Positions 7,668 through 55,069 are shown, numbered from the stretch's first letter. The stretch is 64,000 nucleotides of DNA from an uncultured Candidatus Binatia bacterium (GCA_965218305.1 OZ244617.1:3522967-3586966); one strand, 5' to 3'. Notes: generated by a model from the letters alone, not told the origin. Translations and numbers: made by a program.

Positions 7668-7808
7668 CGCTTAACTACCTTCCAATCACGGCTCGGACGT
7701 ACCCGGCCGCCGAACGCTTACTCCGGCAGTACGGACGAGGGGCCTGAGCCAGATGTCCTTCTTGGGCTTGTCGTACAGCTTGCCCCGGTCATAGCGTCCG
7801 CGTCCATG

Positions 7809-7859
7809 GGTGCCGCCGACGTCCACGCCGACCATGTATCGACCTCGGGAATCACTCAT
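7809..7859 (-). pseudogene. N-terminal stub resembling hydantoinase/oxoprolinase (or another actin-fold enzyme)
   Basis: ATG at 7859 reads MSDSRGRYMVGVDVGGT (phosphate-1 motif), then similarity is lost. Confidence 0.35.
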
Positions 7860-8043
7860 AACTAGTTGATATATTTGTGGTTTATAGGGATCATGAACTA
7901 TGAATCGCTAAGCGGCTCGATCCTTTGCGTAAGCATACTGTAAGCGGATTCACTCCAGTTTGCGCGCATCCTAGCGCGCCTCTGTCCGACAAATCCTCCA
8001 CTACTGATGACCTGCAACACATTGTGCCCACCTCGGTCAGTCG

Positions 8044-9201
8044 TCATCCCTCTATTATCTGGCCGATGTTCTCCCCTTCAAACCAAAGGATTTCATTCTT
8101 GTCCGCTCTCGCGTGCGACAACCGATACAGGATCTCTGGTGGTTTTATATCGCCGGCGTATGGATTGACGTAGAGACGGGTAGTTGCCTCGCGAAGGTTC
8201 CAGGGAACGCAGTCACGGAACATCAAGACAGCGGAAAGCCTAGTATAGCGCGGTTGGTATCCGCCTCGAATCCAAACTCCGTCAGGCTCGCGACCAAGTT
8301 TCGCATATAGATCAGGACGATCATCATAATAGACGATGTGCTCTTTGCCGAACAACGCCTCCATCTCATCCTCCCTACCAAAAAACGGGTCACTCACATT
8401 TGTCGCCACCACAAGCGGCGAGTCGAGTTGACCATACCTTTTGGCCTTCTCCCTTATCGCGTTCCGAACAGAAGTAGAGATGTCGAGTGCTTCCACACGA
8501 GCGGGGCCTATGACAAGAGGTCCGGACCTCCCGCCGTCTCGTTTTTCAGAAGCTATCGGTTTAAGCCATCCTTGCAAGCGCCATGATCCACACCCAATAG
8601 TTCGACAGGGCGCCGCAAATGGGCCTGCCACGTCGATCATTCGTTGGACCTCATCCGGGTCGTGAGCAGCCAGTAGCTCACGGAAGGATTGGACCACCTG
8701 CTCCCGGCTCAGAGCCCGTAATAGCTTCCCCTCTACTTGGGCAAATATGTTGAAATTCCCAGAATTCAGGCTGTTGATTTTCGCCATAACGTCCTCTTCC
8801 AAAGGATGGCGAGCAAATGGGCTCCCACTGGGCTCAATGTACGTCGTTTCGACATAGAAGGAACAATCCCCATGAAGAGCAAGAAAGTCCGGCCGCGATC
8901 CCTTGCCGGGAACACTGGGATGCACCTCTACCGTGCAGCCTAGGTGGGTGAGCAGCTCATGAATGAACAATTCAAAAACTGCTCCTTTATGCGCCCGATC
9001 ATCGTCTTTGCGAAACCTAGCCCGAACATCGTTGCGGGCATCGACTGGGAATCGCCCAAACCACATCTCGAGCCGAGCGCGAATCGCGGTCGCCTCGCGG
9101 TCCGCGGATCGGTTCAGGTATGAAAAAAGGAACTCATTTTGTTGTCTTCCACTTGCATCTGTTCGTTTCTTTTCGTCGAAAAGAGCTGCCCGAATTGTCA
9201 T
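8044..9201 (-). CDS. hypothetical protein with PD-(D/E)XK-like nuclease signature
   Basis: AVFELFIHELL...SRPDFLA...FYVETT has the E...PD...ExK-like spacing with the Lys position degenerate. Confidence 0.6.
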   Translation of the reverse strand: MTIRAALFDEKKRTDASGRQQNEFLFSYLNRSADREATAIRARLEMWFGRFPVDARNDVRARFRKDDDRAHKGAVFELFIHELLTHLGCTVEVHPSVPGKGSRPDFLALHGDCSFYVETTYIEPSGSPFARHPLEEDVMAKINSLNSGNFNIFAQVEGKLLRALSREQVVQSFRELLAAHDPDEVQRMIDVAGPFAAPCRTIGCGSWRLQGWLKPIASEKRDGGRSGPLVIGPARVEALDISTSVRNAIREKAKRYGQLDSPLVVATNVSDPFFGREDEMEALFGKEHIVYYDDRPDLYAKLGREPDGVWIRGGYQPRYTRLSAVLMFRDCVPWNLREATTRLYVNPYAGDIKPPEILYRLSHARADKNEILWFEGENIGQIIEG

Positions 9202-9227
9202 GTTTCGTGGTGTCTCCCGATCAACTG

Positions 9228-9267
9228 TGAGGTGGCCTCACTTTCTTGGACAGTTTGGCGGTCCGAG
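9228..9267. mobile_element. orphan IS3-family terminal inverted repeat
   Basis: TGAGGTGGCCTCACTTTCTTGGACAGTTTGGCGGTCCGAG closely matches the IS3 ends at 41850-41879 (reverse complement) and 47864. Confidence 0.6.
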
Positions 9268-9279
9268 TTGCGGCCTGTG

Positions 9280-9574
9280 CCACCGTTTCAACCCCAACTA
9301 TGCCACAACTGGCCGGCGCGCTGAACAAACTGCAGGACCGCGCAAGGGCCGCCAACTCCAGCCGCGGCTGATCGAACGCATCGTGCTCACGCCCGCCGCG
9401 AACCGGGAGAGATGGACGTCGCGCTACACGGCGACCCCTGGGGACCATACTTGAATAGACTGGAAAAAGGACGGAGTCAGGAAGGCCGACCCGCCCTCAT
9501 CGGGGATGTCAATCTCGGTGGTTGCGGGGGTGCGCAACCACCGAAACCGACATTCGCTCGTAGTCTCGATCTAA
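9280..9574 (+). pseudogene. C-terminal remnant of a large serine recombinase
   Basis: Broken frames read LAGALNK...LIERIVLTPA...DVALHGD...SVVAGVRNHRNRHSLVVSI*, the tail pattern I recognise from recombinase-family proteins. Confidence 0.55.
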
Positions 9575-34921: not shown

Positions 34922-36208
34922 ATGAAACGAATCGTCCACTACGTGAACCAGTTCTTCGCCGGCCTCGGCGGCGAGGAAAGCGCCGGTCTCGCGCCCGGCC
35001 ATCTGGAAGGCGCGACCGGGCCGGGCAGGCTGTTGCAAACGTTACTGGGGGAGAGTGCCGGCATTGTCACGACGGTCTACTGCGGCGACGATCACTTCTC
35101 CGAGAACGAGGATGAGGCGACAGCCCGGCTGCTGGAGCTGATGACGGCGGCCAAGCCCGACCTGCTGTTCGCCGGCCCGGCCTTTGGCTCGGGCCGCTAC
35201 GGCCTAGCCTGCGCGGCGGTGTGCCGGGCGGCGAGTGCCGAGCTCGGCGTCCCGGTCCTGACCGCCATGGCGCTGTCCAACCCCGGCGCCGACTTGATCC
35301 GGCGCGAGCTTCCGGTGGTCCGCACCGGAGAGTCGTCGGGCGACATGCGCGCCGCCCTCGAGTGCTCGGCCGGTCTGATCGCGAGGATCCTGACCGGCGA
35401 GGCCGTGGCGCCAGGCAGCGAGGAGGGCCTGATCCGCGGCGGCCGTTGGAACACGCGCGCGTCCAGGCGGGCCGCCGAGCGGGCCGTGGACCTGCTTCTG
35501 GCCAAGCTCGCCGGTGGTCCCATGGAAACGGAGATCCCGCTGCCGGCCCTCGAGGAGGTCGCGCCGGCGCCCGGGATCTGCGACCTCAGGTACGCCAAGG
35601 TGGCGCTGGTCACCACCGGCGGTCTCGTGCCACGGGGCAATCCGGATGGGATCAAGTCGTACCTGTCCACTCACTTCGGGGTCTACGGGCTGGAGAGCAA
35701 GGAGCACCTCACCGCGGACGAGTTCGAGTCGGTGCACGGCGGCTTTTTCACCGCCGCGGTGAACGACGACCCCAACCGGCTCATTCCCCTGGACGTGCTG
35801 CGGGAGGCGGTTCGGGAAGGATTCCTGGGGGCGCTGCACGAACGCTTCTATTCCACCACGGGCAACGGCACGCCCATCGAGACCGCGGCCAGCATGGCCC
35901 GGGACATCGCGGCATCGCTGGAGGAGGACGGCGTCGACGGCGTCATCCTCACCTCTGCCTGAGGCACCTGCACTCGCTGCGGCGCAGCGATGGCAAAGGA
36001 ACTGGAAAGAGGCGGCATCCCGACGGTGCACGTGACCAATCTCGTTTCGGTGTCGGAGAACACCGGGGCCAAGCGGATCCTGTCCGGACGGGCGATTCCG
36101 CACGTGTTCGGCGATCCCTCACTTGGCGCGGACGAGGAGCGTCAGCTCCGGCGGCGGTTGGTGGAGCAGGCACTGGAGATGTTGAAGGAGGAGGAGGGGG
36201 CGGCGTGA
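34922..36208 (+). CDS. glycine/sarcosine/betaine reductase selenoprotein B (GrdB/GrdF/GrdH family), Sec at TGA 35960-35962
   Basis: VHYVNQFFAGLGGEE N-terminus; GVILTSA-TGA-GTCTRCGA (UxxCxxC) continues in frame as MAKELERGGIPTVH...IPHVFGDP. Confidence 0.92.
35963..35992 (+). promoter_or_regulatory. bacterial SECIS element
   Basis: 11 nt after the UGA comes a 17-nt hairpin TCGCTGC-GGC-GCAGCGA (35974-35990), the same geometry as the E. coli fdhF SECIS. Confidence 0.75.
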
Positions 36209-41615: not shown

Positions 41616-41777
41616 CCGCTTGCGGCTCGGTCCGGGGCTCTGGGCAAGCAGCGCGAAGCGTCGAATTCCTCCGGCCGGTTGTCGGCGGGAGAGAGAGCCC
41701 GAGTTGGCGGAGTGACACTGGTCAGGCTGTTGTTCGGCGAGTGGGTTCGGTGTCGATCGGCGCGGTAACGCATTGAT

Positions 41778-41879
41778 TGAGGTGGTCCTGGTTTGTTGGA
41801 CAGGGTGCTGGCATGATCGATGACTCGGAATACACCTTATCTCGGCCGCCATCCTGTCCAAGAAACCAGGACCACCTCA
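41778..41879 (+). mobile_element. 102-bp IS3-derived MITE (two ends, interior deleted)
   Basis: 30-bp inverted repeats with 2 mismatches (41778-41807 / 41850-41879, TG...CA); the inner part matches the right-end sequence of the IS3 copy at 47864. Confidence 0.8.
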
Positions 41880-43302
41880 GTCCTGCCGTTCCGGTTGAGC
41901 CGGCGGAGGGGCGGGCGAGCGGTGGGGCTCAGCCTGCATCTCCATCAGCATTCCTTTGTCGTAGGCCTCGGCCGGGGTGGAGTCGGCCAGGGCGGAGTGA
42001 GGCCTTTGGGTGTTGTAGAACCCTATCCAACGGGCGATGACCCGTTGGGCCTGGAAGCCGTCGGAGAGTTCGTGCAGGTAGACGGCTTCGTACTTGAGCG
42101 AACGCCAGAGGCGCTCGATGAAGATGTTGTCCATACACCGGCCCCTGCCGTCCATGGAGATGGCCACACCGGCGTCTTTGAGGGTGGCGGTGAACTCCAG
42201 GCTGGTGAACTGGCTGCCCTGGTCGGTGTTGAAGATCTGAGGCCGGCCGTAGCGTTCCAGAGCTTCGGTCAGGGCCTCCGTGCAGAACCGGGCATCGAGG
42301 GTGTTGCTAAGCCGCCAGGAGAGCACCCGGCGGGTGGCCCAGTCCATGACCGCCACCAGGTACAGGAAGCCCTTCTGGACAGGGATGTAGGTGTAGGGGT
42401 CGGACCGGAGCGCCCTGTCGTCTTTCGAGCGATGGGTTTCTCCGGCCCGCCCTCCGAACCGGACGTGCGACTCTCACCGCATCCGGCTCTCCATGTGCTC
42501 ATACCGTCAGGTTCAGCTTCGTCTGCATCGCGAGTACTCGTGACTCCGCCTCGATCGGACCAAGCCATGAAGCACCGGTATTCACCAGCGTCCTCCTCGT
42601 TGGGCATTGAAGCCGGGAGCACACTGGACCCCTTCGCCATGTACACGGCTTTCCCGTGCTCGGACTACTACGGGTCCTCCGCCCCACTCCGCCGGCATCA
42701 ACCGGCGACAGGTCTTCCCCGCCATGCTGGCAGGGACCGACGAAGTGGTTCCCACGTTCACTCTCGAACCCTTCAACGGGGTCGGTGCCCAGCTATGCCC
42801 CTGCAACCTCGCCACGGCTACGCCGCAGTCCTTCACCGTGGCCTCCCTGCCGGCGACATAAACCGGCCCAGGAGTTCCCCAACTGGCCAGACCAGTCGGG
42901 TGCGCGTTGCAACCCAGCCCTTATCTGTCAGGTTCGAGCTGGTGGTGCTTGAGGGGCTTTCCGCCGCTGGTTCCTTGCGTACACCTCTCCGTCTCGCTTG
43001 CCGGACCCACGCCATCTGACAGTGCTGGCGCGTCCCGTCGTTGTCAGGACTGCTTCCACCTTCACCGATGTCCCTCGGGTCGGGCTGCCCTCAGCTTCTT
43101 TCAGCCTGCTGCGACAGGCTGTCGGCGGTGGTCTCTCACCACCGCAAGGTTCGAGAACGCCTCGTGGCGCTCGATGTCCGCCGTCCAGACCTGATTGGGC
43201 CGTTCGATGGCGAGGCCCTTGAGAAGATAGGGATACACCCGGTGCTGGGGGGATGCCGTGTGGTGGTCCGGGGCGCCTGGTAGATGGCCTGTAGCCACCT
43301 CA
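41880..43302 (-). pseudogene. IS3-family transposase OrfB fragment interrupted by a group II intron
   Basis: HRVYPYLL...NQVWTADI [intron] TYIPVQKGFLYLVAVMDW...NTDQGSQFTS...DNIFIERLWRSLKYE; only 8 bp of the left end remain (CCACCTCA 43295-43302). Confidence 0.92.
42393..43172 (-). ncRNA. ORF-less group II intron (780 nt) with internally deleted RT/maturase
   Basis: 5' GAGCG (consensus GUGYG); domain V GAGAGCCGGAUGCGGUGAGAGUCGCACGUCCGGUUC (42456-42491); 3' end CCCUAC; 28-aa IEP stub at 42499-42585; removal rejoins the D-I/T-Y codons. Confidence 0.9.
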
Positions 43303-43346
43303 GTCAGCATCAACGCCAACATATCTGCAAACTTGGACCTCTAGTT

Positions 43347-44672
43347 CTACCTATGAACCCAGCGTTCAAGCTTGCGAATGGCATCATCTAGACCCTTCCG
43401 TACTTCCTTGAGGTCGGTGACCACTCCACCTATCTCGTTTGACCGGCTTGCAAACAGTTCTCCCTGCCTACGTGCTTCCCTTGCCATATCGTGCGCCGGC
43501 CAACGTACTACTGCATTTACACACGGGTGCAATTCCACGACCAATCTGCCAGGTGTTACTGTCCTGAATTGAGCCCCAAACATCCCACCTTCAAACAAGA
43601 CACGCAGCTCCCTGATTCCAATATCGCAGCGTGGCCGGGACAAAATCGAGTCTTCCTCCGTTAACGCTCTCCAAACGTGCCGCCCAAGGCTACTGAGACA
43701 TAATTCGCGCTTCCCGTGTAGTCCGGCAAACAACCCGAGCCAAACAACCGCGCTAGGGTACCGTTCCAGATGTTTCAATATCAAACCGGCATGTTTGATA
43801 GTGCCGGGGAAAATTCTGCTCCCCAAATAACCGGCGACAAACGAGTACTCTTCCTTGTATCGGTATCCCCAGTTCCCTCGGTCCCCAAGTACGTGTTCCA
43901 GAACAGTCACCCGGTCCTCTTGCGTACCCTTCATTGGCTCAATTGCCTGCCGCGCATTTGGGAAACCCGATGTCAACCGCTTCCACGTCGCTTCTCCGAT
44001 TTCGCCCTTGTCAACTACCTCCCTAAGGCCGGCAACAAGCGACCGATTCCCGCCGCGCTTCGACCTGCGATCCGACTCCTCCGCGGGACCGTTTATCATA
44101 TCCATTACGGTCTCCCACGGGACCAACAAACTCTCAACCTCAATTCGCAGCGGAGCCTGTCCGGTAATACTTCTGCAATTCGACCATCCCCGCGCCAGCT
44201 GCGTCATATCGACCTTGCGCCGTATCCCTTGGGAAGCTGCATACGAAAAAGTCGCGATACACGCAGACATAGAAACACGGTCCACATCATACCCCTCACT
44301 CGACTGTGCCATTGCCTCTGTTACAACCAAGCCAATGGACGCCGCTTCCAGAAGTCTTTCTCCTTCGCGGCTGATTCGGTCATCGTTCCCAATCACTTCC
44401 TCATCGGAAAACACTCTGAAGTATGCCGAAATCGGACTCCAGTTTGGCACGTACGTGTTCGTCCACGCAAAGAAGTCGTCGACGTCTGCGTCGCGCACCA
44501 TCAACGCTACCGGCAACTCTCCGTTTCTTGGCTCCTTTGCCCAGATGAGCAGGACATCCCCCATCTTCAAGCCATCCCGGTCTCCACCTTCGCGAGCGCG
44601 AAGGGACTCCGCGGGCGACCCCCGCTGAAGCAGCTCCGTGAACTGCTGTCTCCCGACCTTAGCGTTCCACAT
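43347..44672 (-). CDS. hypothetical protein (441 aa), third gene of the kinase-helicase operon
   Basis: Intact ORF starting 2 nt after the helicase stop; no motif recognised; coiled-coil-like C-terminus. Confidence 0.8.
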   Translation of the reverse strand: MWNAKVGRQQFTELLQRGSPAESLRAREGGDRDGLKMGDVLLIWAKEPRNGELPVALMVRDADVDDFFAWTNTYVPNWSPISAYFRVFSDEEVIGNDDRISREGERLLEAASIGLVVTEAMAQSSEGYDVDRVSMSACIATFSYAASQGIRRKVDMTQLARGWSNCRSITGQAPLRIEVESLLVPWETVMDMINGPAEESDRRSKRGGNRSLVAGLREVVDKGEIGEATWKRLTSGFPNARQAIEPMKGTQEDRVTVLEHVLGDRGNWGYRYKEEYSFVAGYLGSRIFPGTIKHAGLILKHLERYPSAVVWLGLFAGLHGKRELCLSSLGRHVWRALTEEDSILSRPRCDIGIRELRVLFEGGMFGAQFRTVTPGRLVVELHPCVNAVVRWPAHDMAREARRQGELFASRSNEIGGVVTDLKEVRKGLDDAIRKLERWVHR

Positions 44673-44674
44673 TT

Positions 44675-45832
44675 CTATCCACCGTCTCCAAACAGCTCGT
44701 CAATCGACGGCAACGCTGATTTTGGCTCCAAAGACGCAATCGCCTGATCCAGAAAACCCAACAGCTCGCCCGAATAATACATGTACAATGCCGTTTTGGC
44801 CCGCGTGACCGCAGTAAACGCCAGAAATCGAGGCAGGGGTCGGCGCGCGAAATTCTCACAACTTAATACGTGGAGTACCCGGTATTCCAAACCTTTCGCT
44901 GCGTGCAGGGAGGACACGCAAATTCTAACATCGTCCGCGAACCGAACAATTTCACTCTCTCCATGGAAGCTCGCTGCGGCACCGAATTCCGTCTGTTCTA
45001 TCGCGGCCCATACTCGCATGGCCGCATCGCGGCTGGGAGAAATAACTCCTATTCGCTCATCAGGGTATGCGGCTATCTGCGCACTCAATTTCGAAATAAC
45101 GGACTCGATTTCCTCATCCAACGATCCACACCGTTCAAAGCGTACACTAGAAGGTCTGTCCTCCTCGTTATAGTTGCAACCCGCCTCAATTGGGTGAAAA
45201 TCCTCTCGGTCGCGACCAATGACATCAGCAAACCTGCAGATGCCTAGACCGTTTCGGTAATGGTGTGTCAATTCCACCTTTCCTTCAACGATCCTTTCCA
45301 GTACGCCGAAGGGCTCCTCGCCGCTGTATATTTTTTGGCGTCCGTCTGCTACGGCAAACAAGGTCTTACTCAGTCGCGCAAACAGCTCGACCTCCTCTGG
45401 AAGGTAATCATGTGCCTCGTCCAGTAATATTGCGTCATAGAGGTTTTGCAAACCATGTTTGTGAACAATACCAGTTACTTGCTGAACCAACCGCATCCGT
45501 TGTTCGGCGAAATCCTCCGCAGAATCGACCGTTACGCCATACTGTCGCAGAACATCTCTGAAAAATTGGTGAGATGTGACGATCTTCTCCTGCGGCACAC
45601 CGTACGCGTCGGCCCCTGCCACAATGAACTCGCGAAGCGCTCGTGTGAACACCACAATCTGAAAATTCGTTCTCTTTACCAAGGTCAGATATTTGGCCCT
45701 AAGAACCAACAAGTTAGTTTTTCCTGAACCGGGTGGACCCACGACGAGGTGCCCCTTGTCGAGAGGAAGAGCCACGACCCGCTGTTGGTCATCGTCCAAC
45801 TGACCTTCGGCCACCCACCACGTATCGTTCAT
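44675..45832 (-). CDS. compact superfamily-1 (UvrD-like) helicase/ATPase
   Basis: Q-motif LDDDQ, GPPGSGKT, LLDEAHD, AVADGRQKIY, HYRN, SLHAAKGLEY, FTAVTRAK. Confidence 0.9.
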   Translation of the reverse strand: MNDTWWVAEGQLDDDQQRVVALPLDKGHLVVGPPGSGKTNLLVLRAKYLTLVKRTNFQIVVFTRALREFIVAGADAYGVPQEKIVTSHQFFRDVLRQYGVTVDSAEDFAEQRMRLVQQVTGIVHKHGLQNLYDAILLDEAHDYLPEEVELFARLSKTLFAVADGRQKIYSGEEPFGVLERIVEGKVELTHHYRNGLGICRFADVIGRDREDFHPIEAGCNYNEEDRPSSVRFERCGSLDEEIESVISKLSAQIAAYPDERIGVISPSRDAAMRVWAAIEQTEFGAAASFHGESEIVRFADDVRICVSSLHAAKGLEYRVLHVLSCENFARRPLPRFLAFTAVTRAKTALYMYYSGELLGFLDQAIASLEPKSALPSIDELFGDGG

Positions 45833-47229
45833 GTTTCCCGCTCCTCCAGTCCGGACGTGAGGCGAACTGGACTCTGGTCTTGAGCAGCAGTGGCTTGCAA
45901 CGTAAGTGCCCTGTCGTACGCCGGAAGAATGAAATTGAGAATTGTAGTGCCAATGGTGGCCGGTTGGACGAAACCTGCAAAAACCCTCTCGAGGGGGGTC
46001 TGGCTATCGGTCGGCTCGGGCGGTCTTACGTCTAGCCACGCGGTTGCGTCTACCACTACGGCGCGAGGCTCCTGATCGACGAGTACTATCTTGAAGTCTA
46101 AAGCAAAGTAGACGTCGAGTCCGAACCGGTGGCTTGGCGAGAACGTGATGGCAAAGTGCGCTGCGGTATCTTGCATGCGCAACTCCTGGACCCTGAGGGG
46201 CGGGAGAAGGGCTTCAGACACACAAACGCCACGGATAATGTCTCTTACCTCCTCCGCCGTCGTACGTAGCATTCTTAAGCGCTCGTACTGGGCGTCCGGC
46301 TGCGAAGGTGGAGCCGCTCTCGTACCCAACCTCTGAAGTATCTTTTCCCTCGCTGACTCACTTGGCAATGACTGTAAAGGAATGCTTTCGAAGTCGCCCC
46401 AGGAAACGAGGTCAAGTCGGGCGGCGGGGTTTTTTACGAGGCACCTTTGGGCTAAAGAAATCAGGTCGGGCGGGACATCGGTAGCGGTCAAGTTAGGGGT
46501 GTCCTGTTGTACTGCATTGACTAGACGTGCATAGGGATCTAATGCGTAAGAGAAGATTGTGTTTCGTTCTATCAAGTCGTGAAGAACGGCTCCCAATTGG
46601 TAGAAGGTGACCGCACGCCAGCCATCAATGGAATCTTCTTCAGTACGTAGAAGAAACTCGGGAGGGCTGTATTGAAGCGTACCGAGAAAAATCTTTGCGT
46701 CCCCATGGTCGGTTCCGCCGGGATTGGCGATGGCTCTAATAACTCCTAGATCGAGCAAGACTGCTTTATCGGGTGTCGCTGCGATATTTGCCGGCTTTAT
46801 ATCTCTATGGGCAATGTTTAACGTCTCTAGAAATCGTGCTGCTTGCGCTACGTTACGTATTATTCTGCGGATGCAGTTGCGAGGAATATTCTCAAGAACG
46901 CGGTCGAGGGAGGGCGCGTCAACTCTCTCCATTGCCACATAGAGGAGTCCAGTTCTTGAGCATTCGCCGCCATCGTATATTTCGACCAAATTAGGATGTT
47001 TATGGTCGGCGGTGGAGACCTCTCGCGCAATTCTGTGGAGCTGTGTCAGTCTTCCATAGCGTTCAACAAGTTCGACGTCGAATATCTTGAGCGCTGCGGG
47101 CTGTCCGTCGTAACTGGCGGCGAACACAGCGGCCGACTTTCCAAAATCAATTAATTCGCAGACTGTCCATTTGTCCACTAACGTGTCTTTCAGATCCGCG
47201 CCCAATTTATTTGCTCGCTGTTCGTTCAA
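45829..47229 (-). CDS. Hanks-type Ser/Thr protein kinase with unknown C-terminal domain
   Basis: FGKSAAVF, AALK, HPNLVEIYDGG, HRDIKPANI, LDLG, GTLQYSPPE; TTG start; ATGA overlap with the helicase. Confidence 0.92.
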   Translation of the reverse strand: MNEQRANKLGADLKDTLVDKWTVCELIDFGKSAAVFAASYDGQPAALKIFDVELVERYGRLTQLHRIAREVSTADHKHPNLVEIYDGGECSRTGLLYVAMERVDAPSLDRVLENIPRNCIRRIIRNVAQAARFLETLNIAHRDIKPANIAATPDKAVLLDLGVIRAIANPGGTDHGDAKIFLGTLQYSPPEFLLRTEEDSIDGWRAVTFYQLGAVLHDLIERNTIFSYALDPYARLVNAVQQDTPNLTATDVPPDLISLAQRCLVKNPAARLDLVSWGDFESIPLQSLPSESAREKILQRLGTRAAPPSQPDAQYERLRMLRTTAEEVRDIIRGVCVSEALLPPLRVQELRMQDTAAHFAITFSPSHRFGLDVYFALDFKIVLVDQEPRAVVVDATAWLDVRPPEPTDSQTPLERVFAGFVQPATIGTTILNFILPAYDRALTLQATAAQDQSPVRLTSGLEERET

Positions 47230-47399
47230 GGCGTGCGGTCCCCGAATAGATGGTGGGCGTTGACTCGATGTGAGAAATGTTTACTTTCGGATTGTTTATG
47301 TTCGTGCGGCCATAACCGTGGAAAAACGTTCCCAATGAGCGGGTGGAGTACGGCATGAACGGTGGACGTGCCGGAACCCGAAAGATGAACATCGCGCAG

Positions 47400-47681
47400 G
47401 GCATTGTCGTCTTTCACCGCGTGCTTGCGCCGCTTGAATGGCCTGAATTGCGACAGGCGCGACGCCGCGACCGGCAGGCTTGTGCCGCCAGGTGGGCTGC
47501 GACGGGGACGGGCAGGTCGGTACCTAGAAGTAAGGGGCGACAACTGTGGCATCCAAAGTTCGTCGCCCGTCATGGTGACATCGCCGCTGGTCTTGAGGAG
47601 GGCGTCGACGGGGTCCTTGGGTGGTGCTTTGCTCACAACTAACCGTTCCGGTATCCGCTCGGCAATGTCGGACTTGTTCAT
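47400..47681 (-). pseudogene. degenerate HU-family gene
   Basis: MNKSDIAERI...VSK...KDPVDALL..GD...RPAR..RSP..G..LPVAASRL.QFRP aligns by eye with HU, but conserved GFGTF/GRNP residues are replaced; end coordinate approximate. Confidence 0.65.
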
Positions 47682-47863
47682 TGGTGTCCCCTCGACCAAA
47701 CCCGATTGCGTGATCCCCTGGTCCCCTGTTGAAGGTCCGCTGCGGCACTGTATCTGCCTACCACAAACTCTGTGCCCTGGCGATCGCCGTGTGGACGGGC
47801 TTCCCCCGTGTTTGCCTGACCGCCTCGGTCGCTACCCGCGTAGCGCTGCGACAACGGGATGTC

Positions 47864-48660
47864 TGAGGTGGTCGCATGTTCTTGGACAGATGGGCGGCTG
47901 AGTTATGGTGCATTCGGGGGTAATCGGTCATGCCGCCAGAGTTCCGTGTAGCACGTCTTCGTGTTCCGGTTGAAGTCGGCAGTGGGGTGGGCGAGGGGCG
48001 GGGCTCGGCTTGCAACTCCATCAGCATTTCGTTGTCGTAGGCCTCGGCCGGGGTAGAACCATCCAGGGCGGAGTGAGGCCTTTGGGTGTTGTAGGACTCT
48101 ATCCACCGGACGATGAACAGTTGGGCATGGAAGCCGTCCGAGAGTTCGCGCAGGTAGACGGCCTCGTGCTTGAGCGAGCGCCAGAGGCGCTCGATGGAGA
48201 TGTTGTCCATGCACCGGCCCCTGCCGTCCATGGAGATGGCAACACCGGCGTTTTTGAGGGTGGCGGTGAACTCGAGGCTGGTGAACTGGCTGCCGTGGTC
48301 GGTGTTGAAGATCTGAGGCCGGCCGTAGCGCTCCAGGGCTTCGGTGAGGGCCTCTGTGCAGAACCGGGCATCGAGGGTGTTGCTAAGCCACCAAGAGAGC
48401 ACCCGGCGGGTAGCCCAGGCCATGACCGCCACCAAGTACAGGAAGCCTTTCTGGACAGGGATGTAGGTCAGGCCCGCGGTCCAGACCTGATTGGGCCGCT
48501 CGATGGCGAGCCCCTTGAGAAGATAGGGGTACACCTGGTGCTGGGGATGCCGAGCGGTGGTCCGCGGCGCCTGGTAGAACCCCTGTAGGCCCATCACCCG
48601 CATCAGACGCCGCACGCGGTAGCGGCCGACACAGACTCCGTCCCGTCACAGATGACGGAC
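47864..48660 (-). pseudogene. IS3-family OrfB fragment with right end (intron-free allele)
   Basis: RVRRLMRVMGLQ...WTAGLTYIP...MAWATRR...IERLWRSLKHE; terminal repeat TGAGGTGG at 47864; 5' truncated. Confidence 0.9.
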
Positions 48661-48698: not shown

Positions 48699-49098
48699 AT
48701 GATTACTAGTTTGGACACGAACGTCGTCGTGTCGGGTCTGAACTTCCCCGGGAACGAGCGATTGGTCCGAGAACTGGCCCTCCGCCGACAATTCGAGCTA
48801 TACTCTTCTTTCTTCATCCTGGAAGAGGTCACAGGGGTTTTGGGCGGCAAGTATGACCGGGCCGAAGACCGCGTATCCGAGGCTTACGTTGGAACAGGCC
48901 GCCACCGTCATTGAACGAGGGCACCTCCCGGATGTGATCGAGGTCAACGAGGTGGACAACCGTATCCTGGAGTGTGCGGCGAAGGCCTCCGCCGATTACC
49001 TGATAATTCGAGACCGAGGGCGTTTGTTGCCTCCTGAGCAACACCGGTGCATCAGGATACTCAATGCTCACCGGTTTCTGTCTTTCTTGGGCCAATAA
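48699..49098 (+). pseudogene. PIN-domain toxin, frameshifted
   Basis: LDTNVVVSG...ILEEV in frame 1 and DNRILECA...ADYLI in frame 2; shift near 48883. Confidence 0.8.
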
Positions 49099-49140: not shown

Positions 49141-50757
49141 GTGCCGTCACTATACTTGAGTCGTCTACCGAACGAACAACGGAACATTTTGCGCGAAAGG
49201 CTGCACGAATCCCAGAACGGGAAATGCTTTATCTGTGGATTGCCCATTGATTTGGACCTACAGGCCAGCAGCCTCGACATCGACCACATCGAACCAATTA
49301 GCGCCGGTGGAAGAGACGGGCCAGACAACTTCGCCCTGACCCACCATTCCTGTAATCGGTCAAAGCAGGCCAGCGATCTGCGGGTGGCCCGGTTGCTGGC
49401 TTCTTTCGATTCCTTGGCACAGCAGATAGCAGAGGAAAATCGGTCGCCAAATCTGGGCGACGTCTTGTTGCTGCGCGGAGGGAGCAAATACCAACTGTCG
49501 GTAACGGTAAACGGGGTACTTTTTGAAACGACCTTTGCCGAAATGGGCCAGAATGCAGTGAAGACTTTTCCGGTATACGAAGATCACATATCGGGCTTTC
49601 GTTCCACGTTCGTCAACTTACCAATCGAGTACTTGCACCACGATGACTATATCAATCCAAGGGCAATCGGCAGCAATTTGAGGAAACTGCTAGAGGAGTT
49701 TCACAAGAAACTCCCACAACTCCATATTTCTTTGGGGTGGATCGACACGTCTCAGGGAAGCCGGGTAAGGGTTAAAATCTTCGACGGCCAACACAAGGCT
49801 GCCGCTCAAGTCCTGCTGGGCGCCCGCAGCCTTCCCGTGAGGATTTTTATCGATCCCGACATTGATGTACTTCTAACAGCCAATACCAATGCCGGAACCA
49901 CGTTGCGTCAGGTGGCTTTCGACAAATCGGTGCAACGGAGTCTGGGCAGTTCAATACTCAGCAACAGGATCGACCGCTACCGTACAGATAAGGGGCTTGA
50001 CCAGGACGACGAAAATTTCTCTGAGTTGGACCTGATTAACCACTTCAAAGGGGAGAGTCGCCAGATGAAGCGATACGTGCTCGACCGGGTGCGTAATGCC
50101 ATAACCACTCACCCCGACAATAAGCTCAGAGACTATATTGAATACGGCGGCCGAAGCACAGAGAAACCGTTGAGCTACAGCACCATAGAGAAGACCTTCT
50201 ACCAGATGTTCGTCTCTGGCGACGTACTAAGAACGCCGTTTAACTACAGATTTCAGGAAGGTGCAAATCCACGGCAGTTGGAGATCGAGCAGACGGTGAG
50301 GCTAATGAACATTCTTGCCGATGGAATTTACATTGAACAGTTCGACCCCACTCGAGGCACGCGCCACATAGAGAACGATGTCCAGAAAGGGAAGTACATT
50401 GCGGAACCGCACCTCCGCGCCTTCCGTATGTCAAAGGAAGAGGTAGTCCATAATTGGGTACGTCTTATTCAACAAATTGTGTACAATTACTTTGTTATGA
50501 CCGGGAAACCAATTGACCAGAAGACACTTTTTCAACGTGAGATTCCTGAAGCTTGCTGGATGAACGTCACGAATTTTGTTGACGCCCTGAAAAGCCTTTC
50601 ACTCTGGTTAAACAAGGACCTCTCCCTTTCCGCCTTCGGTACCAAACGAACCAATGAATACTGGTACTCGATTTTCGAGAGCGGGAGCACACCGGATGGC
50701 ATGCCGGTTATGCCCTCAGGTCTAAACCTCCTGGAAATGATAAAAAGCGAAGACTGA
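49141..50757 (+). CDS. N-terminal HNH endonuclease fused to a ParB/DndB-like (DGQHK) domain
   Basis: CFICG...DIDHIEP..AGG.D...NFALTHHSCNRSK; central KIFDGQHKAAA. Confidence 0.8.
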   Translation: MPSLYLSRLPNEQRNILRERLHESQNGKCFICGLPIDLDLQASSLDIDHIEPISAGGRDGPDNFALTHHSCNRSKQASDLRVARLLASFDSLAQQIAEENRSPNLGDVLLLRGGSKYQLSVTVNGVLFETTFAEMGQNAVKTFPVYEDHISGFRSTFVNLPIEYLHHDDYINPRAIGSNLRKLLEEFHKKLPQLHISLGWIDTSQGSRVRVKIFDGQHKAAAQVLLGARSLPVRIFIDPDIDVLLTANTNAGTTLRQVAFDKSVQRSLGSSILSNRIDRYRTDKGLDQDDENFSELDLINHFKGESRQMKRYVLDRVRNAITTHPDNKLRDYIEYGGRSTEKPLSYSTIEKTFYQMFVSGDVLRTPFNYRFQEGANPRQLEIEQTVRLMNILADGIYIEQFDPTRGTRHIENDVQKGKYIAEPHLRAFRMSKEEVVHNWVRLIQQIVYNYFVMTGKPIDQKTLFQREIPEACWMNVTNFVDALKSLSLWLNKDLSLSAFGTKRTNEYWYSIFESGSTPDGMPVMPSGLNLLEMIKSED

Positions 50758-51785: not shown

Positions 51786-52584
51786 CTAGTTCCGCCACGG
51801 TGCGACTCTGCGTTCGAAGCGGGCCAGGCTTGCCATCAAGATGATCGACGTACCGGCAAGCAGGAACACGCCGGTGAATAGCTTCGGCATGTTGTACTCT
51901 TCGGCCGAGAACCAGATCATATTGCCGACGCCCGCCTCGGACCCGAAGATCTCTGAAATCAGCACGCCGGCGAGGCCGCGCGCGACTGCAATGCGCATTC
52001 CGGCGATAATGAATGGATAGGCATTCGGCAGCAAACGGTACGGATGACCTGGCTGGGGGTGGCCCCGAACGACTCCGCGGCATCGATCAGATCTCGTTCG
52101 GTTGATCGAATTCCGAGGGAGGTGTTAATCGTGATCGGGAAGAAGGCCTCGATAAAGATAATGGTGATCTTGGAGTAAATGCCGATTCCCAGCAGGACAA
52201 TGAAGATCGGTGCAAGAGCGATCATCGGAGTCGCGTAGAGCGCACCCAGCCAAGGTTCGATATACTGAGCCGAAGATCGGTGGAGTGCGAGCAGAATGCC
52301 GAGTAAAACTCCGAGGATCGCCGCGGTACTATACCCGAGTACGAATTCGATGGCGCTGATCCGGACATGCTTCCAGAGCTCCCCGCTCTGGCCCATTTCA
52401 TAAGAGTTCAAAGCGATATCGGTCAGCGAAGCGAAGATGAGATCGCTTTGGATGACAATCTTGCCATCACCTCCCACACGATCATCACGAACAGGATGGA
52501 AATCAGCATCCGGCGGCGCTCTGGCGTCATGAAGTGAGCCAGACGACTCGGAGCCATGACCTTCCCGGTGTCAGGTTGGTTCAT
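51786..52584 (-). pseudogene. NitT/TauT-family ABC permease, two frameshifts
   Basis: Three frames join into one permease (ATPMIALAP, DLIDAAESFGA, LPNAYPFIIAGMR, EIFGSEAGVG); shifts near 52456 and 52034. Confidence 0.85.
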
Positions 52585-53790
52585 GCTTGTTTCCCTCATC
52601 GCTTTCAAGAACGATCTTCGAATCCAGTGCCCACACTCTTTTTGATTCCAGATCGACGCCGAGCGGGTTGATATCGAACTCCACAAGATCGCCGCCCAGG
52701 ACCTGGCACAGGCCATCGAAGGCCAGGATCAGGCGTTTGAGCTCCTGGATCAAGGGTGCGGCCGAGTCGCCCGCGAGACGCTCCAGCGCGGACGCGACGT
52801 GTGACTCGCGGACCAGTGCCTCGGCATCGCGCGCCCCGAGCGGGCTGAGGCGCAGTGCTGTCGCACCGACATCCTCGACAACAGTGCCGCCAAGTCCGAA
52901 GACGATGCCGAGACCGCTGACGGGGTCACGCCGCGCCCCGAGAAAGACCTCGATGTCCTTTGCGACCATCGTCTCGACGACAACCGCGCGTGCGTCGTCA
53001 CCAAAATCGGCAAAGAAGCGCGCCACCACCGGCGGGATCTCCTCGGCCGAGCGAACGTCGGCGATGACCCCTCCGGCGCGCCGCCGGTGCAGGATCCGGT
53101 CCGACGAAAGCTTGACGATGTAGGGTGGCGGCAATGCTTGTGCGGCAGAGAGCGCATCGTCTCCGCGGTTGAGAACCTTCAGGGGTGGGGTGTCAAACCC
53201 GCACGCCGCGAGGACGGAGAAGACCCGTTCCTCCGTGAGAACCCGGGTTGCCGACGCCGTCAGTATCCGCGCATGGTCCTTCATCCTCTCCGGCAGCTCG
53301 GGCAGAGCGGCGGAATCCTCGGCGGCAGTCCTCGCTCACTATAAAATCGGGCAAGCTTGCCGAGTACCGCAAAGGCGTGCTCCGCGTCGGGCAAGATCGG
53401 AATAGCCTCGAGGAAACTATCTTGCTGCATGGCAAGGGTGTCAAAGCCGGTCCTTGTGTAGAGTACGAGGCGGCCATCCGACTCTTCAAAAAGTCGGAGG
53501 TAACCCTTGAATATGCCCGCCCGGGGCAAATAGCGGGCAAGCACGAAGTCGGCTCCGCTTTGTAACGCCAGCAGGCTCACCAGTTCGGTTAGATTCTCGA
53601 CCCGTATGGCGCCCGACTGGCGTAACGCCGCGTCGATCAGCGCGTCGTCGCCGGCCAGGCTGCCCGAATGTGCGAGCGCGGCGCGGGCGCCCACTTCACT
53701 CCGTCCCGTCTTGAGGACGACGATAGGAACTCCGAGCGAACGAGCGCGTTCACATGCACTATCCGAGGTCATTGACTGCCGATCTTCCCC
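52571..53790 (-). pseudogene. NDP-forming acyl-CoA synthetase (acetate-CoA ligase family) remnant; C-terminal ATP-grasp part open at 52571-53284
   Basis: PIVVLKTGRS..GARAALAHSGSLAGDD (ligase domain) and PYIVKL...HR...GGV, EVFLG..RDP, EFDINPL (ATP-grasp); the CoA-binding N-terminus is absent; frameshift near 53333. Confidence 0.75.
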
Positions 53791-53875
53791 GCCCGTATAG
53801 TGGCCGGGCGATGGTCCAGCCAGAGCGTGAGTAACAGGAAGGCCGCAGCGCACCCGAAAGTTTGGCGGAAGGATC

Positions 53876-55069
53876 ATGTCGGACGCTCTCAAGGATAAGT
53901 TTGCCATTGTGGGTCTCGGGCTGCTGGCGGGCCGGTTCGAGGATCGAAGCTTTCGGACGCTCCAGACGGAGGCCGCCAGGCTCGCGATCGAGGACGCCGG
54001 CCTTACGGTAAACGACGTCGACGGCGCGATTGATCTCAAGATCGCACCCGGCGCGGGAGACGTTCCGTCCCCCACCGATGCCTTCCCACGCGTTCTCGGC
54101 CTGCCGTGCCGTATGTTCTTCCAGGTTGCCCGTGGCGGCACCGCGAGCATCGTCGGCGTTCTGGCGGCTACCAAGTTTCTCGAACTCGGCATGGCCAACT
54201 ATGTCGTACTCGCGTCGGGAACGAAAGATTACTCGCGGAGCCGAGTTGCACGGCGAACGGGCAATACCAGCATCGGAGTCATCGAAAGGGCGGGCTATTG
54301 GGGGAAGCCATTCGGCGATTTGGCGGCGATGAGTCACCACACTTTTTTTGCCGCGCGCCACATGCATGAGTTCGGCACGAAAAAGGAGCAGTTCGGCGAG
54401 ATTTCCGTGGCGATCCGCGGTTGGGCCCAATCCAACCCATTGGCGCAGTTCCATGATCGGCCGCTGACGCTGTCCGAATACATGGACGCGCCACCGCTCG
54501 TCTGGCCCTACAACATCTTCGACTCTTGCGTCGTGAGCGACGGTGGTTTTGCCATCGTCCTGACAACTGCTGAGCGGGCCAAGGACCTGGCACGCAAACC
54601 CATCCATGTTTCGGGCGCGGGGGTGGGAGAGGCCATGGGGCAGCTCTGGTGGGACAAAGCCAACTACACGTGTCTTGCCGTACAGACCGCCAAGGAGACC
54701 GCCTTCCGTGAAGCGGAGATCGACCTCAAGGATCTCGATTTCGCGGGGCTCTATGATTGTTTTACCGCCGAGGTGCTATTCCAGCTAGAGGACTACGGAT
54801 GGTGCAAGAAGGGCGAGGGTGGTGCTTTTGTCGAGGGGGGGCGCATCGGTCCGGGGGGCGAGGTCGCAATCAATACAAGCGGTGGACTCCTGTCCGCATA
54901 TCATCTGGGCGAGCAAACTCATGTCGCGGAGGCCATCATGCAGCTCCGCGGCGAAGCAGGAGAGCGGCAGGTAGAAAACGCAAGAATCGGGATGGTGACG
55001 GGACACGGTGGCGAGATCCTTTCGCCCGGGATGTGCTCGACCCATGCCTGCATGATCCTGAGCAACTGA
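53876..55069 (+). CDS. thiolase-like (SCP-x/Ltp2-type) protein
   Basis: AIEDAGL, VSDGGFAIVL, LYDCFT, NTSGGLLS, QLRGEAGERQV. Confidence 0.92.
   Translation: MSDALKDKFAIVGLGLLAGRFEDRSFRTLQTEAARLAIEDAGLTVNDVDGAIDLKIAPGAGDVPSPTDAFPRVLGLPCRMFFQVARGGTASIVGVLAATKFLELGMANYVVLASGTKDYSRSRVARRTGNTSIGVIERAGYWGKPFGDLAAMSHHTFFAARHMHEFGTKKEQFGEISVAIRGWAQSNPLAQFHDRPLTLSEYMDAPPLVWPYNIFDSCVVSDGGFAIVLTTAERAKDLARKPIHVSGAGVGEAMGQLWWDKANYTCLAVQTAKETAFREAEIDLKDLDFAGLYDCFTAEVLFQLEDYGWCKKGEGGAFVEGGRIGPGGEVAINTSGGLLSAYHLGEQTHVAEAIMQLRGEAGERQVENARIGMVTGHGGEILSPGMCSTHACMILSN

Follow-up and report, generated by a model that had tools for sequence, protein, structure and literature searches.

Three coupled genes and their products

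Open reading frame (ORF) calling was carried out on a 64-kb stretch of DNA (64,000 nucleotides; hereafter the window, in which all positions are counted from the first letter) from an uncultured Candidatus Binatia bacterium (GCA_965218305.1 OZ244617.1:3522967-3586966). At 43347-47229, exactly where a preliminary description made from the sequence alone had placed them, we found three uninterrupted ORFs on the minus strand, which encode a Ser/Thr protein kinase, a compact helicase-like ATPase of superfamily 1A (SF1A), and a protein of 441 amino acids (aa) that we call ORF3. Of 23 informative loci, which come from at least nine phyla, 22 carry these three genes (the trio; 3.9 kb in total) in the same order. 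Their parts are the following:

45829..47229, minus strand: gene 1, a Hanks-type (RD) Ser/Thr protein kinase of 466 aa with a TTG start
46408..47190, minus strand: catalytic domain of the kinase, residues ~14-274 (extent of the Pfam and PADLOC matches)
45832..46374, minus strand: C-terminal domain of the kinase, residues 286-466, without a known family
44675..45832, minus strand: gene 2, a compact UvrD-like SF1A helicase/ATPase of 385 aa
43347..44672, minus strand: gene 3 (ORF3), of a family without annotation; 441 aa, predicted to be soluble and mostly helical

The stop codon of the kinase gene and the start codon of the helicase gene share the sequence ATGA (the junction reads ...GAA ACA TGA), the helicase and ORF3 genes are separated by a gap of 2 nucleotides (TAG-AA-ATG), and GGAG-type ribosome-binding sequences precede the starts of both the helicase and the ORF3 genes. 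The region is also AT-richer than its surroundings, with a GC content of 0.49-0.57 over 43.5-47.5 kb compared to 0.60-0.69 in the flanks. The overlap, the short gap and the drop in GC had all been pointed out in the preliminary description and were reproduced here; judging from its junctions and uninterrupted frames, the trio is an intact operon whose genes are co-transcribed and translationally coupled. A scan for σ70 promoters returned no match, a result that says little for this organism. Because the trio is kept in more than 20 independent loci, a chance origin is excluded. A hydrophobic segment long enough to span a membrane was found in none of the three proteins, and a reading in which one of them acts as a membrane effector was dropped for this reason.

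The three proteins were compared with the profile libraries PADLOC 2.0, NCBIfam 2026, Pfam 2025 and PHROGs. In the kinase, the Pkinase family of Pfam spans residues 26-273 (5e-23), PknB is the nearest solved structure (7e-21), and the top PADLOC models are those of the PD-T4-6 defence kinases (9e-33, compared to 6e-21 for PknB-type models), whose match is restricted to the kinase domain (profile positions 4-259 of 292) and leaves the C-terminal domain outside. The catalytic motifs, described earlier as complete, are indeed all present and are kept in 17 family members: the VAIK K48, the αC E70, H141-R142-D143, N148, D160-L-G (the equivalent of DFG), T173 and T184 of the activation loop, and an SPPE motif. 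Given that the RD and activation-loop motifs are conserved, the kinase should be activated by phosphorylation of the loop. By tblastn, the kinase domain is 47-77% identical among loci. The C-terminal domain (~190 residues), for which no match was obtained in Pfam, NCBIfam or PADLOC, is the fastest-evolving part of the module, being 22-30% identical, or undetectable, at loci where the kinase domain is ~50% identical. A word-based search with this domain returned only 4 close relatives, a result that says little on other architectures, and an hhalign comparison between it and the ORF3 profile was null.

In the public annotation of the source contig, the kinase is reduced to its last 115 aa, starting at M352, and the protein collection does not contain the 466-aa product. 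Since homologues from more than 13 loci align from residue 1 of the TTG-initiated 466-aa frame, we regarded this frame as the kinase gene and put the 115-aa call down to an annotation error at a gene of foreign composition. Two related metagenome contigs also give short kinase products, of 310 and 241 aa; the 310-aa product is the kinase of locus L022, which is without its first ~153 residues at the DNA level.

The helicase matches the Pfam families UvrD-helicase, UvrD_C_2 and AAA_19, and consists of the RecA-like 1A and 2A cores with little space for 1B and 2B inserts. Its motifs are likewise complete and are kept in a comparison of 17 family members (Walker A, K38; Walker B, D138-E139; III, R165-Q166; IV, R193; V, K313-G-L-E; VI, T343-R344). 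We obtained 890 relatives at E ≤ 1e-10, and the 120 that were listed, down to 44% identity, measure 381-391 aa, apart from a few shorter and apparently truncated gene calls. The compactness of the helicase (385 aa), on which the preliminary description had remarked, is therefore genuine. The best PADLOC model is C3a187 ('NERD+UvrD'), which is matched in its helicase part only (4e-25), and among solved structures the HelD 2A domain comes nearest (1e-5).

ORF3 has no match in Pfam, NCBIfam, PADLOC or PHROGs, and none of 85 diverse relatives could be assigned to a Pfam, PADLOC or NCBIfam family. When a profile was run against 1.84 billion cluster representatives, the ORF3 family comprised 1239 clusters (50% identity) at E ≤ 1e-3 and 544 at E ≤ 1e-30, and its members are nearly all 440-490 aa long. 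Five residues (W44, E252, G290, D350 and E355) are invariant across the 85 sequences; in a larger set of 149 sequences E252, G290, D350 and E355 stay invariant and W44 is kept in at least 90%, and the near-invariant residues include R86, E119, T141, S143, R254, R335 and E380. In an AlphaFold2 model from the 149-sequence alignment (pLDDT 91.1, pTM 0.87), a small α/β domain at the N-terminus precedes a large body of helices, and a β-hairpin leads into a long helix at the C-terminus. This model superseded an earlier one from 18 sequences (pLDDT 61), whose Foldseek matches were meaningless. Foldseek with the 149-sequence model, a search that the preliminary description had proposed for this protein, gave nothing under E = 0.1 against PDB and BFVD (TM ~0.1-0.25), and a PDB sequence-profile search was empty. 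No signal of a nuclease, PLD, TOPRIM or PD-(D/E)xK domain was detected in ORF3 (Pfam and PADLOC on the 85 members, PDB profile search, Foldseek), and hhalign of its profile against a neighbouring HamA (DUF1837) was null. An ADP-ribosylglycohydrolase-like fold was considered and rejected as noise-level: it has no Pfam support even at E ≤ 10, the ARH3/Tri1 matches (E 0.5-1) came from the poor model and are absent from the PDB top 50 of the good one, and a match to a giant-virus ARH in BFVD (E 0.19, TM 0.23) is equally at the level of noise. The model and the searches together point to ORF3 being a soluble protein whose family is absent from curated libraries and whose predicted fold matches no solved structure.

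Conservation and neighbourhoods of the trio

Whether the three genes stay together in other genomes had been set as a check in the preliminary description, and the outcome was clearly in favour of it. Loci were gathered via ORF3 relatives, plasmid records and helicase relatives, and were afterwards searched by tblastn with the kinase, helicase and ORF3 of the window. The trio lies on one strand and in the same order in L001-L015 and L017-L024 (L016 ends at a contig edge), with intergenic distances of mostly -4 to +14 nucleotides. Its hosts include metagenome-assembled genomes of Gemmatimonadota, Acidobacteriota, Bacillota, Deltaproteobacteria, Dehalococcoidia, Verrucomicrobia and Bacteroidales, as well as the cultured planctomycete Gimesia alba, and copies are carried on plasmids of Rhizobium leguminosarum, Ralstonia solanacearum and Cupriavidus (Alpha- and Betaproteobacteria). 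Among these copies are those on the R. leguminosarum Vaf10 plasmid NZ_CP016292 (62084-66013 of the record), in the Gimesia alba record CP036269 and on pMTS3 of Cupriavidus sp. P-10. The distribution is sparse, with 13 loci coming from a pattern-limited scan of 185,579 species genomes. In RefSeq the three products are named 'protein kinase', 'ATP-binding domain-containing protein' and 'hypothetical protein'. An all-versus-all comparison of 205 flank ORFs revealed no recurrent fourth gene or small ORF, and tblastx revealed no conserved sequence in the 600 nucleotides on either side of the trio; by these comparisons, the conserved unit is exactly the three genes.

Identity to the window proteins falls in a regular order, with the helicase at or above the kinase domain, followed by ORF3 and then by the C-terminal domain of the kinase (in L001: 64, 61, 38 and 30%, respectively). 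This is the order expected if ORF3 and the C-terminal domain of the kinase are the parts of the module that confer specificity. One locus, L025, carries the helicase and ORF3 genes (7001-9541) with no kinase within 7 kb, suggesting that the kinase is not an indispensable part of the core. Immediately ahead of this pair is a 2-oxoacid dehydrogenase E2 gene, and behind it comes a gene for an OLD-like AAA_15/AAA_21 ATPase.

At the loci for which annotation exists, the genes around the trio vary from one to the next. On a conjugative plasmid of Rhizobium, a Hachiman system (DUF1837 plus a DEAD/DEAH helicase) adjoins the trio, and a RelA/SpoT-domain gene, IS481 and IS3 are nearby. The Ralstonia locus is flanked by a toxin/regulator pair and a second UvrD-type helicase, the record of Gimesia alba shows ParE, NYN, N6_Mtase and IS21 in the flanks, and an AbiJ_NTD4 gene is found in the flank of one further locus. 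Elsewhere, the flanks contain a NACHT-like ATPase, an AAA+S8 peptidase, a PIN_4 gene and two integrases (one locus), four transposases (one locus), or an integrase, a DDE transposase and a TrwC fragment (another locus). A pooled scan of 139 neighbour ORFs returned matches to HamB, RmrA, mad3/mad8, PDC-M23B, rve, TrwC and TraH. Such variable flanks, often of mobile or immune genes, are the pattern expected of a defence or conflict module.

The setting of the trio in the window

In the window itself, the trio lies between two remnants of insertion sequences (IS) of the IS3 family, and the features next to it are the following:

41776..43322, minus strand: left remnant of the IS3 family, with OrfB alone (recognised by direct repeats shared with the right copy and by OrfB-like translations)
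42393..42491, minus strand: group II intron domain V-VI, within an insertion in the left IS3 remnant (Rfam RF00029, 60.8 bits compared to a gathering threshold of 40)
47226..47699, minus strand: degenerate HU/IHF-like ORF of 157 aa (Bac_DNA_binding, only 30.6 bits)
47758..48615, minus strand: right IS3-family remnant, OrfB with rve domains (rve 1e-19, rve_3 3.5e-16)

The two OrfB remnants are on the same (minus) strand and are 89% identical over 300 nucleotides; both are 5'-truncated and without OrfA. An insertion of ~780 bp (within about 42198-43177) interrupts the left OrfB, and the intron that it carries is ORF-less or truncated, nested in a dead IS. The terminal inverted repeat TGAGGTGGTCCTGGTTT occurs at 41778 and 41879 only, that is, at the outer end of the left copy, and end alignments showed that the end of the right copy is degenerate. 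IS3 flanks like those of the window are shared by no other trio locus. The preliminary description had read the two copies as a sign that the trio moved as a composite unit. Because the copies lack OrfA and are only 89% identical, the repeat is one-sided and the flanks are unshared, an IS3-flanked composite transposon is not supported, and what may be left of this idea is an old IS-mediated event.

The TGA of the HU-like ORF overlaps the TTG of the kinase gene. No such ORF precedes the kinase gene in other trios, apart from a stretch in L018 (6648-7307) that is degenerate in a similar way. The HU-like ORF was rejected as a fourth component since it is degenerate and present only in the window and in L018; the two stretches may be what remains of an ancestral island common to both. 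L018 also has an intact HU gene 6.5 kb upstream.

Low GC extends past the right IS3 copy to ~50.8 kb, through two further genes. A PIN_3 toxin-like gene (48699-49098, plus strand), between the right IS3 copy and the second of these genes, is split by a frameshift into ORFs of 71 and 81 aa. The other (49141-50757, plus strand) encodes an intact protein of 538 aa with an N-terminal HNH domain of the Cas9/IscB/group II maturase type (Pfam, 3e-9), followed by ~450 C-terminal residues without a family; it is low in GC like the trio, has no plasmid homologue, and could be a further defence candidate of this island, made up of one gene. From the low-GC stretch with its IS3 remnants, PIN_3 and HNH genes, we take the trio to lie in a small decayed island. 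Further away, a gene for an acyl-CoA synthetase-like protein (ADP-forming; 52571-54198, minus strand) is split into a part of 305 aa (Succ_CoA_lig) and a part of 237 aa (ATP-grasp_5); its relatives, which are 90% identical, have 713 aa. This pseudogene agrees with a genome in which genes are decaying. The earlier statement that nearly all neighbours of the trio are decayed thus holds for the IS3 copies, the HU-like ORF, and the PIN_3 and acyl-CoA synthetase-like genes, which are broken or degenerate, but not for TctA, TctC, a 2OG-oxygenase-like gene and the HNH gene, which are intact. A SECIS_4 element (35963-36000, plus strand; 48.9 bits compared to a gathering threshold of 38) directly follows the stop codon of an ORF at 34922-35962, a position that suggests a selenocysteine read-through gene, perhaps formate-dehydrogenase-like. 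No tRNA or rRNA genes were found in the 64-kb window.

Relation to known systems and possible function

The trio matches no named system in PADLOC, NCBIfam, Pfam or PHROGs, in agreement with the preliminary description, which had recognised none. Full-text literature searches, whose coverage stops short of subscription papers, gave no description of it. As far as we can tell, the trio has therefore not been described so far.

The closest parallel in organisation is Mokosh type I, a validated anti-phage system made up of MkoA (a Ser/Thr kinase joined to an Upf1-like SF1 helicase) and MkoB (a PLD nuclease), in which the ATP site of the helicase is essential (Millman et al. 2022, bioRxiv 10.1101/2022.05.11.491447). 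In both, a Ser/Thr kinase (N-terminal or upstream) is coupled to an SF1 helicase and accompanied by one further protein. Unlike in Mokosh, the kinase and the helicase of the trio each have their own gene, the helicase is of the UvrD-like SF1A type in a minimal form rather than of the COG1112/Upf1-like SF1B type, and ORF3, in contrast to MkoB, has neither a PLD nuclease domain nor a fold that is known (its 85 relatives are without a family). The MkoA hidden Markov model (HMM) matches the trio helicase at Walker A only (residues 9-41, E = 0.0028). C3a187 is a family of NERD-UvrD fusion helicases (Shah et al. 2018, PMC6546367); the trio helicase has the same compact UvrD-like motor core (model positions 197-540, 4e-25) but lacks the NERD nuclease domain. 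The idea that C3a187 and the kinase family C3a189 form a known CRISPR-accessory pair was rejected, as the two come from different organisms (PMC6546367).

The remaining systems resemble the trio in single parts. GajB models match stretches of only 40-100 residues of the helicase (best 2e-11), and the trio has no match to GajA (an OLD-family ATPase plus TOPRIM nuclease), which places it outside Gabija. Like HelD (PDB 6wvk), whose 2A domain is its nearest solved match, the trio helicase is without a classical 2B domain; unlike HelD, it measures 385 aa instead of ~775 aa, lacks the clamp-opening domain and the N-terminal secondary-channel arm that binds RNA polymerase, and reaches 35.7 bits with NF041464, compared to a cutoff of 419, over the C-terminal 2A part only. 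The PglW model matches part of the kinase domain (8e-8; NCBIfam 28.6 bits compared to a cutoff of 990), but the methyltransferase PglX, the ATPase PglY and the phosphatase PglZ, which belong to BREX type 2/Pgl, are absent from the trio and from its conserved flanks. Similarly, the mad6 HMM matches the kinase domain only (6e-27; NCBIfam 47.6 bits compared to a cutoff of 460), and the other mad genes of MADS (mad1-8, one of which encodes a methyltransferase) are absent from the module, with mad3/mad8 found only near a few loci. TerY-P combines its kinase with TerY, a vWA protein, and a PP2C phosphatase; neither domain occurs in the trio helicase or in ORF3, and the trio has no recurrent neighbour.

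For the kinase alone, the nearest likeness is to PD-T4-6 and Stk2, with which it shares a Hanks-type kinase domain without a partner phosphatase. The absence of such a partner fits abortive signalling, as in the mechanism of Stk2. PD-T4-6 (reportedly from Vassallo and colleagues, 2022) and Stk2 (reportedly from Depardieu and colleagues, 2016) are said to be single-gene defence kinases. Unlike these kinases, which act alone, the trio kinase is locked into its operon in 22 of 23 loci and has a C-terminal domain of its own that belongs to no family. Taken together, the trio would belong with the defence operons that are built on kinases and helicases, its third component being a protein for which the predicted fold matches no solved structure.

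With moderate confidence, we read the trio as a self-contained, horizontally mobile conflict module, most likely an undescribed defence against phages or other mobile elements that works roughly as outlined below; this is a function that we infer. A defence or anti-plasmid role is plausible in view of the patchy distribution, the plasmid and island contexts, the variable flanks, the low GC and the PD-T4-6-like kinase. As for the preliminary proposal of a 'phosphorylation-gated, nucleic-acid-sensing' module, it is a mode of action that we infer only. In the scheme that we propose, the helicase-like SF1A ATPase and ORF3 would form the core, since this pair persists in the kinase-less locus L025. 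The ATPase might engage the nucleic acid of an invader or a nucleoprotein complex, and the RD kinase, with its conserved activation-loop Thr and no partner phosphatase, could be switched on via its fast-diverging C-terminal domain. Once active, the kinase might phosphorylate cellular targets, the helicase or ORF3, in the last case perhaps at T141 and S143, which are nearly invariant; ORF3, with its invariant E252, D350 and E355 and near-invariant E380, would act as effector or adaptor, and the outcome would be growth arrest or interference with the invader. Validated precedents are Mokosh type I, in which a kinase is likewise coupled to an SF1 helicase, and the single-gene kinases PD-T4-6 and Stk2. 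A bolder form of this scheme would make the trio a new class of immune pathway, in which a minimal SF1 motor and a protein of new fold sense the invader, a Hanks kinase relays the signal through phosphorylation of proteins and without a nucleotide second messenger, and ORF3 is thereby switched on as an effector whose activity lies beyond the nuclease, NADase and pore precedents; we hold this bolder form to be doubtful.

Several observations weigh against a defence role or against parts of this scheme. Phage-borne copies of the trio were found neither in 50,697 phage records nor in IMG/VR. Housekeeping genes flank L001 and the upstream side of L025, and the neighbour survey is descriptive rather than a statistical test of enrichment. 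The N-terminal truncation of the kinase in L022 indicates that some copies are dead, and the kinase-less L025 may be a product of decay rather than a functional two-gene variant. The label 'effector' for ORF3 is a guess, because the protein has no recognisable catalytic fold, and it could equally be a sensor or a scaffold.

The most credible alternative, which we nevertheless consider unlikely, is a system in the style of Gabija, Hachiman or Nhi, in which the helicase and ORF3 both sense and kill, ORF3 being a cryptic metal-dependent nuclease or hydrolase and the kinase a modulator or an independent effector. It agrees with the pair in L025, which has no kinase and adjoins an OLD-like AAA_15/AAA_21 ATPase, with the partial match of GajB-type HMMs to the helicase, and with the acidic residues of ORF3 that are invariant (E252, D350, E355) or nearly so (E380); operons of an NTPase plus a nuclease are also recurrent in defence, according to a preprint. 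However, Pfam, PADLOC, the PDB profile search and Foldseek gave no nuclease signal in ORF3, the hhalign comparison with HamA was null, and 22 of the 23 informative loci have the kinase, with its catalytic residues conserved.

Quite improbable, in our view, is a non-immune cellular role, in which a kinase would regulate a HelD- or UvrD-like factor of transcription recycling, repair or stress, with ORF3 as adaptor and mobile DNA as an incidental carrier. HelD, a motor that recycles RNA polymerase, is indeed the nearest solved relative of the helicase, the kinase is PknB-like, and the flanks of L001 are housekeeping genes. Yet the match to HelD is far below its cutoff (35.7 bits versus 419) and limited to the 2A domain, and the genes show neither vertical conservation nor synteny with housekeeping genes; the sparse distribution (13 loci in the pattern-limited scan of 185,579 species genomes), the occurrence on plasmids and islands, and the foreign GC in the window also speak against such a role.

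A toxin-antitoxin-like (TA) addiction or maintenance module, in which the kinase or ORF3 would be a toxin that is held in check by its partners and stabilises plasmids or islands, is very improbable. Copies do occur on plasmids and beside TA genes and transposases, no phosphatase partner is present, and kinase toxins of the HipA type are known, but three large enzymes including an ATPase motor are atypical of TA modules, and many copies are chromosomal and not visibly within an element. This explanation also overlaps with abortive-infection defence and is not cleanly separable from the conflict module that we favour. Hardly credible, finally, is a split Mokosh type I, with kinase and helicase on separate genes and ORF3 in the place of MkoB: the MkoA HMM does match the kinase with its N-terminal part (1e-16) and the Walker A of the helicase further along (0.003), in collinear order, but the helicase is UvrD-like SF1A with its P-loop alone matching MkoA, and ORF3 is without a PLD domain, so that the likeness is one of analogy and not of homology.

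Returning to the conflict module, we consider the trio a promising candidate for a new system against phages or plasmids, with defence as its putative function. Few bacterial immune systems are known to work through kinases, and how they do so is poorly understood. The trio pairs two well-understood enzymes with a large family that is missing from every curated library searched, and the module is widespread, with more than 1200 clusters of ORF3 at 50% identity and at least 890 matching helicases, and some of its hosts are cultured and tractable. Should it have no defensive role, three uncharacterised families have been defined and linked for annotation. If it is defensive, the trio would represent a new system with a new effector or sensor fold, and would offer a setting in which to study how phosphorylation gates an immune motor.

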